NCBI GenBank assembly: GCA_003164215.1
Contig: PLSR01000003.1
Location: forward strand, 28,892 to 92,891
Length of the DNA stretch: 64,000 nt
Direction of reading: 5' to 3'
DNA from: Candidatus Kaiserbacteria bacterium
GTDB lineage: Bacteria; Patescibacteriota; Minisyncoccia; Phycocordibacterales; UBA2100
How positions within the stretch are numbered: position 1 is the stretch's first letter; each line of letters opens with the position of its first letter. Shown here piece after piece: positions 26,662-60,532 of the stretch. The translations under genes and the position numbers were made by a program. The notes under the pieces were generated by a model, which was not told the DNA's origin, did no database searches, and was given only the letters and a program-made list of their open reading frames with translations.

Positions 26662-27726
26662 TTATTTTTTTGATTCATCGATCACTCCGCCTCCGAGACA
26701 CAAGTCGCCATCATAAAGCACGAGTGATTGACCGGGCGACGCGATATGCGGCGTGTTGAATACACATCGGATCCCACCGTCGGCCTCGGAGATCTCTGCT
26801 CCGACCGGCATTTCGTGATACCGAGTTTGCACTTCGCAACGGTGTGGAAGCGTCGGAGTCACTCCGATCCAATGCATATCCGATATCTCCGCTGATCTTC
26901 GCGCCGCGTCTTGGCGGTTCATCGACACGGTCAGTGTGTTGGCATCGGTATCGACGTCAACGATGAAATGTGCGGCACCAGACGAGCTATCTGTGATAGT
27001 GAACCCGTGCCGCTGCCCGATCGTATACAGTGCCGCCCCGTCATGCCCCCCAATGGTCTTTCCGTTCACATCGAGTACATTTCCGGGATCGACCGTAATG
27101 TATCTGCGCAGAAAATCCCGCATCGAAACATCGCCGACAAAACATAATCCCTGACTATCGGGTTTCTCGCTGACCGGTAATCCAAAACGACGCGCCTCGT
27201 TGCGCACAGCGGGTTTTTTTATACCACCGATCGGGAACATGATCTTCGTCAGATCTTCCGAAGACGCACGGTACAAAAAATATGACTGGTCTTTCGCAGG
27301 ATCAATTCCACGCAGGAGATCGGTGCGCGACCCATCCTTGCGAGATGCTTGTGTGCGGGCATAGTGTCCTGTCGCGATTGCATCTGCACCCTCCGCGAGC
27401 GCCCACCTCAGGAACGAGCCGAACTTAATGCGTTCGTTGCAAAGGACGTCTGGATTCGGGGTGATACCGCGACGGTAGTCGGCGATCATGGAATCGATCA
27501 CCTGCCGCTTATATTCCTCTGAAAGATCGACCTCGCGAAATGGAATTGAAAGAGCGGCGCAAACACGCATCGCGTCGAGGCGATCTTCGCGCCATGTGCA
27601 TTCAATGAACTCCGGCTGCCAGATCCTGATGAAAACACCGGTCACATCATATCCCTGCTCTTTTAACAATGCTGCAGACGTCCCTGAATCCACGCCACCC
27701 GAAAGCCCAACAAAAACCTTTTGCAT
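26662..27726 (-). CDS. mnmA: tRNA-specific 2-thiouridylase MnmA
   Basis: PP-loop VGLSGGVDSG; start set to internal Met (MQKVFVGLSGG), since the 16 upstream codons of the ORF lie inside an inverted repeat. Confidence 0.85.
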   Translation of the reverse strand: MQKVFVGLSGGVDSGTSAALLKEQGYDVTGVFIRIWQPEFIECTWREDRLDAMRVCAALSIPFREVDLSEEYKRQVIDSMIADYRRGITPNPDVLCNERIKFGSFLRWALAEGADAIATGHYARTQASRKDGSRTDLLRGIDPAKDQSYFLYRASSEDLTKIMFPIGGIKKPAVRNEARRFGLPVSEKPDSQGLCFVGDVSMRDFLRRYITVDPGNVLDVNGKTIGGHDGAALYTIGQRHGFTITDSSSGAAHFIVDVDTDANTLTVSMNRQDAARRSAEISDMHWIGVTPTLPHRCEVQTRYHEMPVGAEISEADGGIRCVFNTPHIASPGQSLVLYDGDLCLGGGVIDESKK

Positions 27727-27745
27727 GTTGCCACAATACAACAAG

Positions 27746-27870
27746 GAGCTGTGGCATGCACTGTTTTGGAGCATCGCCTAACGAGTCAGAAATTCAGTAG
27801 CTAGTCCGTCGCAAGACAAAAGATCTCACGCCGCTCAATCGTCGCTCCAAAACAGTGCATGCCACAGCTC
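27746..27870. repeat. 125-bp element with perfect 27-bp terminal inverted repeats (MITE-like / long stem-loop)
   Basis: GAGCTGTGGCATGCACTGTTTTGGAGC at 27746-27772 is the exact reverse complement of 27844-27870; 71-nt spacer; sits between the mltG stop and the mnmA start. Confidence 0.6.
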
Positions 27871-27879
27871 TACACCACG

Positions 27880-28923
27880 TCACTTCCCCAAATATTCCCG
27901 TTCATTCGCCTGCTGACATGCATATGTCGCACAGTAGTGCGTGACGCCACTGCTGTCGGCAAGATAATACAAATAGTTACTTTTGATCGGCGTTACGGTG
28001 GCGAGCAATGAGTTAAGCGAGGGGCTTCCGATCGGGCCGGGCGGCAAACCCTTGTGCGTATAGGTGTTATACGAGGACTGACTTTTGAGATCGGTCATCG
28101 TGAGCTGTGAGTCCGCCTTCGGAAGCGTGTATTGCAACGTCACATCGGTCTGAAGCGGCATGCCTCGTGCGATGCGGTTCCACAGAACGCCCGCGATCAT
28201 CTGTCGGTCCTGCATATTATTAGCCTCACGTTCCGTGATCGACGCCATGATGACATCATCGGAGAGCGGTCTTCCAAAAGCTTCGATCTGAGATTGGATC
28301 GTTGCAACGTGCAGGTCAAAATCCTGACGCATTGATTCAATGACCGTGTTCTCATTCGCATTGGGTAGAAAATAGTAGGTGTCAGGGAACAAATATCCTT
28401 CGAGCGGAGTCGCTTGAGCGAGGAAATTTTGGGCGTTGAAATCCTGCAATTCGATCGAAAAGATCGTCGCCATTTGTCGCACCGTCTCCCCCTCACTGAT
28501 CCTGATCTTGAGGGGTTCAAGACCGAACGCGCCAATACCTATCGTGCGCGCAACATGAAATACATCGAGCGGTTCCGTAAAAATATAATCCCCCGCATGT
28601 AGATCGCGTTCATGCCCGAGAAGTGTCGCCATAACGCGGAACGTAAAGGCGGATCGGACGACCCCGTCTTGTTGGAGGATCTCGCTGACTGCTCTGCCGG
28701 ATTGCCCTGCCGGTATAGTAATGATCTTTTGCAGCGGAAAATTATCCGGTGGGCGGACCAAATAAAGATATGCATAGATCGAGAGCAGTCCGAGGATCAA
28801 TATGATCAGAACGGTGCGCCGGTTGGCGTTCTCGCGCCAACGGCCTGATAATGAGCGTTCAAGCCCGTCAAGATACGCAAGGATCTGCGTGACAAAGTTG
28901 TCCGATGATGGATCCATAGACAT
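27880..28923 (-). CDS. mltG: endolytic murein transglycosylase MltG (YceG family)
   Basis: 347 aa; N-terminal TM anchor and YceG-like C-terminal domain (..YYLADSSGVTHYCATY..). Confidence 0.8.
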   Translation of the reverse strand: MSMDPSSDNFVTQILAYLDGLERSLSGRWRENANRRTVLIILILGLLSIYAYLYLVRPPDNFPLQKIITIPAGQSGRAVSEILQQDGVVRSAFTFRVMATLLGHERDLHAGDYIFTEPLDVFHVARTIGIGAFGLEPLKIRISEGETVRQMATIFSIELQDFNAQNFLAQATPLEGYLFPDTYYFLPNANENTVIESMRQDFDLHVATIQSQIEAFGRPLSDDVIMASITEREANNMQDRQMIAGVLWNRIARGMPLQTDVTLQYTLPKADSQLTMTDLKSQSSYNTYTHKGLPPGPIGSPSLNSLLATVTPIKSNYLYYLADSSGVTHYCATYACQQANEREYLGK

Positions 28924-30408: not shown

Positions 30409-30520
30409 TGCCCAAATAATACCACTTCAACGGCATCGCGAGCATTGATACCAACATATTCGAAAACCGACCGAACGAATTCACGTTGCGGCCGGTCATT
30501 CTTAGTATTTCAATTTGAAA

Positions 30521-31546
<1,026 letters not shown>

Positions 31547-31641
31547 GGTAATGGTGGGTCAAATTGACTATTGAGATTCGTATGTCTTATGTTGTATCAA
31601 ACATATCCTTAGCCGTCAAGGGCAATCGGCCCCAGGATATT

Positions 31642-31664
31642 TGAGCAAGGCGAAACCTTGCTCA
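31642..31664. repeat. REP-like hairpin copy 1 (TGAGCAAGG-CGAAA-CCTTGCTCA)
   Basis: 9-bp stem, 5-nt loop; same unit recurs at 31880 and, inverted, at 31911. Confidence 0.6.
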
Positions 31665-31715
31665 TGATCTTCCGAAGCTCCGGGCGAGTCGCATTTAGAG
31701 TATACTTGTACCTAT

Positions 31716-31860
31716 ATGCGAAAGGGGTCATTCGCACCGGGAGAGTTCTATCATTTGTATAACCGCGGGACTGACAAGCGGAAGGTCTTTTCGTGTGAAC
31801 GCGACTACAAACGCTTCATTTCTTTGCTGTACCTCTGTAACAGTACAGGAGCTATCAGAG
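31716..31860 (+). pseudogene. remnant of IS200/IS605-family (Y1, REP-associated-like) transposase, N-terminal fragment only
   Basis: GEFYHLYNRGTDKRKVFSCERDYKRFISLL matches the conserved N-terminal block of Y1 transposases; the reading frame then runs into the REP hairpin and stops, with no HuH/Tyr motifs. Confidence 0.55.
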
Positions 31861-31878
31861 TTGATAATCTAGGGAGAA

Positions 31879-31933
31879 ATGAGCAAGGCGAAACCTTGCT
31901 CATTATAATTTGAGCAAGGTTTCGCCTTGCTCA
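31879..31933. repeat. inverted REP-like doublet (REPIN-like)
   Basis: ATGAGCAAGGCGAAACCTTGCTCAT-TATAATT-TGAGCAAGGTTTCGCCTTGCTCA: two copies of the hairpin in opposite orientation. Confidence 0.6.
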
Positions 31934-31967
31934 GTGATAACTGTGGCTTGCACACATCTAGTAGTCA

Positions 31968-31994
31968 TAGTGGCCATGGTGCCCATGGCCACTA
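31968..31994. repeat. perfect 12-bp-stem palindrome (TAGTGGCCATGG-TGC-CCATGGCCACTA)
   Basis: seen directly; 11 nt downstream of the stop of the 32005..32553 gene; no U-tract. Confidence 0.5.
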
Positions 31995-32004
31995 GCTCCC
32001 GCGG

Positions 32005-57819: not shown

Positions 57820-60325
<2,506 letters not shown>

Positions 60326-60373
60326 GACGTGAAATATAGCACCTGCCTTCGCCCAAGGCTACGGGCGGACGGG

Positions 60374-60406
60374 TAAAAAAGAGACCGCCATGTCGCCACG
60401 GCGGCC
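60374..60406 (-). terminator. intrinsic terminator/attenuator hairpin 50 nt upstream of tyrS and 127 nt downstream of cfa
   Basis: minus-strand GGCCGCC-GUGGCGACAU-GGCGGUC followed by UCUCUUUUUU. Confidence 0.45.
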
Positions 60407-60532
60407 TGAGTCTAGGGAGGAAACGCCCAAGGAGGGCATATGCGGCAGGTCATGCCACACCTCCTTCACCGTAGCAGTTCATCCAAATTTGTCTATGTGC
60501 GAGAGGTGTGGATAACATAAACCCCCATCGTG

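Follow-up and report, generated by a model that had tools for sequence, protein, structure and literature searches.

mltG and mnmA lie in tandem on the minus strand of a 64-kb stretch of DNA (referred to here as the window, meaning the whole sequence analysed), which the relatives of its MnmA protein place among Candidatus Kaiserbacteria-like Patescibacteria and whose scanned genes are housekeeping genes. The two gene names, first given in a sequence-only reading of the window, are right according to profile matches to TIGR00247 for mltG (194.7 bits) and to PRK00143 for mnmA (392.7 bits). mltG begins 6 nt past the stop of an upstream 492-aa gene, and its own stop codon is followed in order by 9 nt, an inverted-repeat unit of 125 bp, 19 nt, and the mnmA ATG (Table 1). 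The arms of this unit, GAGCTGTGGCATGCACTGTTTTGGAGC at 27746-27772 and its exact reverse complement at 27844-27870, are each 27 nt long, 100% complementary, and 71 nt apart, confirming the geometry described in that reading. Its statement that such arms are beyond chance was likewise borne out by a search for the 27-mer at up to three mismatches, which none of 100 shuffles matched. The stem begins 9 nt past the mltG stop, in keeping with the earlier placement of the element directly after that codon.

Five independent assemblies (L001-L005, drawn from ENA, JGI, and Logan) share an identical 153-nt intergenic sequence between mltG and mnmA, and the element is therefore real DNA rather than an assembly artefact. 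A small ORF within the element was ruled out by stops in all six frames, which leave open stretches of only about 9 aa, and by the lack of conservation of the mnmA extension that crosses one arm.

Table 1. Positions of genes, structural parts of the element, and promoter features at the mltG-mnmA boundary.
Feature	Position	Strand	Remark
mltG, 347 aa	27880-28923	-	Last gene of the DUF8128-mltG unit; stop codon 27880-27882
Spacer CGTGGTGTA, 9 nt, mltG stop to stem	27871-27879	-	
P1 5′ arm, 27 nt	27844-27870	-	Upstream arm on the transcribed strand
Asymmetric 5′ bulge, 23 nt	27821-27843	-	Opens with conserved GANGAUU (alignments)
P2 5′ strand	27814-27820	-	UUUGUCU in the window, CUCGCCU in L089
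Apical domain, 34 nt	27780-27813	-	Possible 3-bp P3
Invariant UACUGAAUUUCU	27788-27799	-	Within the apical domain
P2 3′ strand	27773-27779	-	AGGCGAU; abuts the P1 3′ arm
P1 3′ arm, 27 nt	27746-27772	-	
CUUGUUG, U-rich	27739-27745	-	Directly past the stem; kept only in element-bearing lineages (alignment)
Putative -10 box TATTGT of leaderless mnmA promoter	27733-27738	-	6 nt before the ATG
Spurious mnmA N-terminal extension MLQNSACHSSLLYCGN, 16 codons	27727-27774	-	Crosses the P1 3′ arm
mnmA, 354 aa	26662-27726	-	True start ATG 27724-27726

The mnmA start and the mltG-mnmA slot in relatives

Gene callers are split between 354 and 370 aa for mnmA, the longer ORF starting from 27774. The alignment of the MnmA profile to the 354-aa form starts at residue 2-3, MnmA homologues begin M(Q/K/S)KV(F/Y)VGLSGGVDS, and in the element-bearing relatives the extension is either missing (L088-L091) or begins at a different ATG (L087). 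The 370-aa ORF is thus an over-extension, and the sequence-only reading was correct in regarding an mnmA frame that reaches through one arm as a mis-annotation.

In the window and in L088, L087, L052, L007, and L097, the distance from the end of the hexamer TATTGT to the mnmA ATG is exactly 6 nt. More broadly, among 65 distinct related upstream regions, 37 have a TANNNT hexamer ending 6 nt before this ATG and a further nine have one ending at 7 nt (46 of 65 at 6-7 nt), and the six nucleotides between the box and the ATG vary among relatives. This pattern is what a -10 box would show if transcription began at the A of the ATG, and mnmA is probably leaderless. If it is, the element precedes the mnmA promoter and belongs to the 3′ end of the DUF8128-mltG unit; the mnmA leader, where the sequence-only reading had put it, is then probably the wrong location. 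The last base pair of the element lies 7 nt upstream of the -10 box.

Similar spacing is seen across the window: of 50 genes, 19 have a TANNNT box, often in the form TGnTAnnnT, whose end lies 5-10 nt upstream of the ATG, and no more than one has a Shine-Dalgarno-like motif at that distance. The genome looks largely leaderless.

The succession of mltG and mnmA is general among relatives, most of which have 5-70 nt between the two genes. In the sister lineages L093 and L097, mltG gives way directly to a homologous hairpin of 22-24 bp with a 4-6-nt loop and flanking A and U tracts, beyond which come TGTATT(G/C)T, 6 nt, and the mnmA ATG. This hairpin, which contains G.U pairs, is a textbook terminator. 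The element resembles it in position, between the mltG stop and the mnmA -10 box, and in having a long G+C-containing stem with compensatory changes that is followed by U-rich sequence. It differs from the sister hairpin in its perfect 27-28-bp stem, in a conserved interior of 71-73 nt in place of the 4-6-nt loop, in lacking an A tract or a clean U tract, and in showing no sequence similarity. Other gene boundaries of the window, for example at 30409-30520 and 1000-1031, also show a stop codon, a hairpin, a -10 box, and an ATG in succession.

In the nearest outgroup, L052/L092, the spacer between the two genes is 39 nt, 29 of which align to the window intergenic sequence once the stretch between two CATG tetramers is taken out, and what is left forms a small hairpin, TGTGG-TACG-CCACA, with 5 bp and a 4-nt loop. 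This alignment indicates that the clade's ancestor gained the interior by insertion, or else that the outgroup lost it by deletion. In other Kaiserbacteria, unrelated long hairpins of up to -79 kcal/mol occupy the mltG-mnmA slot in L011, L057, L073, L036, L029, and L074, and one related set of spacer hairpins (L025/L034/L035/L037) is built from CCAATCT/ACGAAT-like repeats.

Conservation of the stem and its interior

The element is found at one site in three lineages, represented by the window, by L088-L091 (P0003), and by L087 (P0004), whose MnmA proteins are 73-79% identical. The clade P0001-P0004, as used here, is defined by a mutual MnmA identity of 73-78%, and a protein search found no MnmA relatives between 100% and 77% identity. 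The remaining lineage, P0002 (L007, L094, L095), has different DNA upstream of mnmA and does not inform the comparison. Its three readable contigs, and a fourth that is listed without DNA, all stop 120-185 nt upstream of mnmA, and mltG is in none of the three contigs read; these contig ends suggest a rearrangement or an assembly-breaking repeat upstream of mnmA.

The P1 stems of the three lineages are perfect over 27, 28, and 28 bp. They differ between lineages at 3, 7, and 7 positions, each of which is altered on both arms, and the one 2-bp indel in the stem is likewise paired, being present in both arms. In the model-fitted alignment, 12 of the 27 P1 pairs have changed on each side, and pairing holds in 99.3% of cells, compared with 33-45% in slid controls; the observed values were reached in none of 500 shuffles. 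No fixed G.U pair occurs among the 83 P1 pairs of the three lineages. Mutations confined to one arm appear only as polymorphisms, namely an A-to-G change that gives G.U in L088/L090, and an A.G in L091.

The comparison draws on only three deep lineages, so that P2 and P3 are without true covariation. P2 (7 bp, CUCGCCU/AGGCGAG), directly inside the 3′ arm, is paired in 91% of cells, and its changes are one-sided only, three in number, and all to G.U on the sense strand. A possible P0 would join GGUG of the 9-nt spacer to UGUU past the stem through pairs that include G.U; RNAalifold pairs columns 6-9 with 141-144 by G.U or C-G in five of five sequences, a weak pairing without covariation. The wobble changes (three in P2, one P1 polymorphism, and those in the candidate P3 and P0) are all G.U on the sense strand and would be A.C mismatches on the antisense strand.

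Between lineages, 25-26 of the 34 nt of the apical domain (74-76%) are identical, compared with 42-51% of the third codon positions in the flanking mltG and mnmA; in the 5′ bulge, 12-15 of the 23 nt are identical. The 12-mer UACUGAAUUUCU is invariant in the element-bearing loci and occurs nowhere else in the window or in the other loci. Because the interior is far better conserved than synonymous sites, it is under purifying selection.

The two-sided changes in P1 prove that complementarity has been maintained, and do not alone prove that selection acts on RNA, since template switching can also yield perfect arms (PMC5941160). The lack of any fixed G.U pair would not normally be expected of a helix under selection as RNA alone, and fits either a constraint on a DNA palindrome or homogenisation of the arms by template switching. 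The element might be a palindrome that acts only at the DNA level and has no function as RNA, kept up by template switching or acting as a cruciform or protein site that tunes the mnmA promoter, whose expected -35 region is overlapped by the 3′ arm. Template switching has been proposed to perfect imperfect repeats and to account for the evolutionary conservation of perfect inverted repeats (Lavi et al., 2018; PMC5941160), and those repeats, like the element, are perfect, lie at orthologous sites, and show two-arm changes. The strictly Watson-Crick stems of all three lineages, the confinement of single-arm mutations to polymorphisms, and the equal stability of sense and antisense folds in two lineages are also consistent with a DNA-level palindrome. 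However, the repeats of that study are short, whereas the arms here are 27-28 nt long and enclose a long, asymmetric, constrained interior with G.U pairs on the sense strand. Template switching would leave unexplained why this asymmetric interior has been retained at 74-76% identity, with its invariant 12-mer, when synonymous sites are near saturation. A protein reading both arms would fix the arm sequence, but the arms change instead. G.U in the P2, P3, and P0 pairs is confined to the sense strand, and a terminator of RNA type, with G.U pairs of its own, occupies this slot in the sister lineages. Together, these points lead us to consider a palindrome of purely DNA-level significance rather unlikely.

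Copy number, mobility, and inversion

The sequence-only reading had offered two identities for the repeat, a MITE-like element or an RNA hairpin, and had named copy counts, target-site duplications, and RNA folding as checks, with a unique repeat that does not vary between strains counting against mobility. Size and arm length do bring the element close to the Correia elements (CREE) of Neisseria, which are about 105-157 bp long, have 26-bp inverted repeats, lie next to genes, and, once transcribed, fold into a hairpin bound or cleaved by RNase III (PMC2649163). CREE, and also the MITEs ERIC and RUP, share with it the form of an inverted-repeat-bounded intergenic unit near promoters. The element could thus be a non-autonomous, CREE-like insertion, either recent or ancient and since domesticated. 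In line with this reading, the 39-nt spacer of L052/L092 resembles an empty site, with the interior between the CATG tetramers removed (29 of 39 positions aligned), and an interior inserted in this way would carry 14-bp inverted ends of its own, CACTG...CAGTG. CREE, however, exceed 100 copies, target TA sites for insertion, and differ from strain to strain, whereas the element is single copy in the DNA examined, has no duplication, occupies one fixed site in three species, and has co-varying arms.

The copy number was examined at several scales. Apart from the two arms, the 64-kb window contains no copy of the 27-mer with up to three mismatches. The covariance model R1, run with filters off, found no second copy in the window, and it found none in 10 kb of extra sequence on one side of the same contig; at the other end, only a 4-kb contig from another sample came up, which did not extend past the window. 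Across 81 related loci (about 610 kb) and the window, the model returned only six syntenic copies, and a 26-bit match at 31872-31950 belongs to a different palindrome cluster. The exact 27-mer has no match among 185,579 species genomes, which shows only that the locus of this species is absent from that collection. The two-arm pattern TGTTTTGGAGC-N55-85-GCTCCAAAACA had no match in viral contigs and eight in metagenome contigs, all of them unrelated long palindromes, in a search that did not return the known JGI copy L002 and is thus a weak negative. No further copy of the element was found in the window, the extra contig sequence, the related loci, or the public collections searched.

Several other palindromic sequences came to light. 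The intergenic region 31547-32004 holds, at 31642-31933, a 23-nt hairpin-palindrome, TGAGCAAGG-CGAAA/TTTCG-CCTTGCTCA, in three copies, of which two are back to back; the trio lies upstream of a Sigma70_r4 and HARE-HTH gene (30521-31546, minus strand) and resembles repeated operator sites. An imperfect inverted repeat of 32 nt (84% complementary, 5-nt loop) is found at 58659-58727, inside the coding region 57820-59070. The metagenome contigs L079, L080, and L082 contain perfect palindromes of roughly 105-185 nt that are unrelated to the element, and that of L079 starts at the first base of its contig; these are probably assembly artefacts or hairpin-ended DNA.

Target-site duplications are absent from the flanks of the stem in all three lineages, where the sequences on either side are GTGTA and CTTGT in the window, GCGT and TTGT in L089, and GTGA and CCTT in L087. 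The inner CATG pair of the window corresponds to TATG/CATA in L089 and TACG/CGTA in L087, so that these candidate 4-mers are inverted and not direct. The element is carried by all five contigs of the window species and all four of the L088 lineage, and its absence is seen only in a different species (L052/L092, with MnmA about 71-77% identical). The 30 window proteins scanned and the genes adjoining the element include no transposase or recombinase, and the arms co-vary rather than decaying independently. A currently mobile MITE is disfavoured by these results, a single ancient insertion into a terminator loop is possible, and we regard a MITE-like identity in either form as improbable. Of the two identities first offered, the hairpin fits, given the terminator slot and a stem kept perfect through two-arm changes; the mobile element fails as far as it could be tested.

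Perfect inverted repeats that bound a short segment directly upstream of a gene are also what an inverton would show, in which a recombinase flips the 71-bp interior between the 27-bp repeats and so switches mnmA or mltG; the repeats of invertons likewise evolve in concert. Yet the interior has the same orientation in 10 of 10 contigs from three lineages and several samples, and in the window it contains no TANNNT hexamer in either orientation, the mnmA -10 box lying outside the repeats. The search among the 30 scanned window proteins and neighbouring genes, which found no recombinase, bears on this reading as well. The stiffness of DNA disfavours very short recombination loops, and by that reasoning 71 bp would be very short for one. 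Inversion is thus scarcely credible here.

Proposed role at the transcript boundary

What the sequences show is an inverted repeat that is single copy in the available DNA, its conservation at one site, the paired changes of its arms, the constraint on its interior, and the fixed spacing of the promoter behind it. We hypothesize that the element is a vertically inherited, clade-specific structured RNA that ends the mltG transcript ahead of the leaderless mnmA promoter, a reading to which we assign about an even chance. RNA from the minus strand would fold into a rod consisting of P1 (27-28 bp), the 23-nt 5′ bulge, P2 (7 bp), and a possible P3 (3 bp), with an apical loop that presents UACUGAAUUUCU. 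The stem would form in the nascent mltG transcript 9 nt past the stop codon, would set the 3′ end of that transcript by termination and/or as a substrate of the double-strand-specific RNase III, and would shield the end from 3′ exonucleases. Transcription from upstream would in this way be kept out of mnmA, whose leaderless mRNA must begin at its own AUG. A role in 3′-end formation is suggested by the canonical terminator that holds the same slot in the sister lineages, with the same -10 box after it. The conserved interior points to an additional function beyond 3′-end formation, probably the binding of a protein or of another RNA. Action as an RNA, in termination or processing, and any function of the conserved interior are inferred.

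RNA folding gave -73.3 kcal/mol with z = -7.2, and the element region has the strongest energy per nucleotide among 18 folded window intergenic regions of 30-400 nt. Sense and antisense folding energies differ clearly only in the window copy, and are similar in the other two lineages. As expected of an intrinsic terminator, the element is a stable stem-loop just past the stop codon at the end of a unit, and the gene that follows has its own -10 box. A terminator scan of 27500-28100 returned no terminator-like sites. The tail past the stem, CUUGUUGUAUUGU, has 8 U in 13 and is interrupted, and so is not a canonical U-tract, and a 27-bp stem that closes a 71-nt interior is unlike the ordinary terminators of the same window.

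Processing by RNase III would require at least about 20 bp of continuous dsRNA, which the 27, 28, and 28 perfect pairs of the three lineages provide; stems of this length would make a putatively ideal substrate. The RNase III processing stems of polycistronic mRNAs and rRNA precursors are similar in that they place more than 20 bp of uninterrupted dsRNA between cistrons, flanking an interior domain. Classical RNase III sites in mRNA usually have internal loops or bulges, whereas the stem of the element is perfect. No rnc gene, which would encode RNase III, was found among 34 scanned window proteins; at least 90% of CPR genomes are reported to keep rnc (PMC12641178).

Comparison with known RNA families gave no match to the element in Rfam 15 at the gathering threshold. 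At E ≤ 10, the three lineages produced only chance-level matches to generic long-hairpin models (miRNA precursors, and DUF3268 at 15.9 bits where 65 are needed), which differ between lineages. Two specific candidates were rejected. First, mimicry of a tRNA anticodon arm (tRNAs being the substrates of MnmA) by the AAUUUCU loop fails because the loop has no flanking stem and the equivalent of position 37 is a pyrimidine. Second, a hammerhead-like reading of GANGAUU/CUGAA fails because core positions misfit and there is no Rfam match. Elsewhere in the window, the region 60368-60444 on the minus strand matches RF00519 (suhB/mmgR, an alphaproteobacterial sRNA family) at 64 bits, above the gathering score, and has CCUCC loops and a clean terminator.

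The extent of conservation in the interior, beyond what a terminator needs, and the exposure of the invariant 12-mer in the apical loop raise the alternative of a stand-alone or 3′-UTR-derived small RNA, in which P1 would serve as terminator or stabiliser, UACUGAAUUUCU as a seed or protein-binding loop, and 3′-end formation would be a by-product. In all three lineages a box resembling the mnmA promoter, TTGTATTAT, is conserved inside mltG, about 90 nt upstream, and could supply a start site. However, this box falls in codons for a conserved YYL motif, for which coding constraint suffices as an explanation, no complementary target was found in the window, and the element is confined to three lineages and belongs to no Rfam family. 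We consider such a small RNA unlikely. In the window the box is located at about 27965-27973 on the minus strand, in the 3′ coding region of mltG about 90 nt before the stop, and may reflect either coding constraint or an internal promoter serving the element.

A further reading, which we also consider unlikely, is that the element represents an undescribed structured ncRNA of a small Kaiserbacteria clade, in which UACUGAAUUUCU, held out on a perfect rod, would bind a protein or a target RNA. Such an ncRNA may have arisen as a domesticated insertion into an old terminator loop, and with it these reduced and largely leaderless genomes would gain a regulatory RNA at the boundary between mltG and mnmA.

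The element is a genuine, conserved structure specific to one clade, and a putative variant of the operon-boundary hairpin with a conserved interior. The reach of this proposal is that of three uncultivated species, and the function is putative. Within that range, the locus illustrates that an inverted repeat with the appearance of a MITE can instead be a conserved structural element under selection, and it provides a candidate RNA motif (model R1, three lineages) for the poorly studied Patescibacteria. It also suggests how operon boundaries may be built in compact leaderless genomes, with a hairpin in the terminator slot adjoining the promoter of the next gene.
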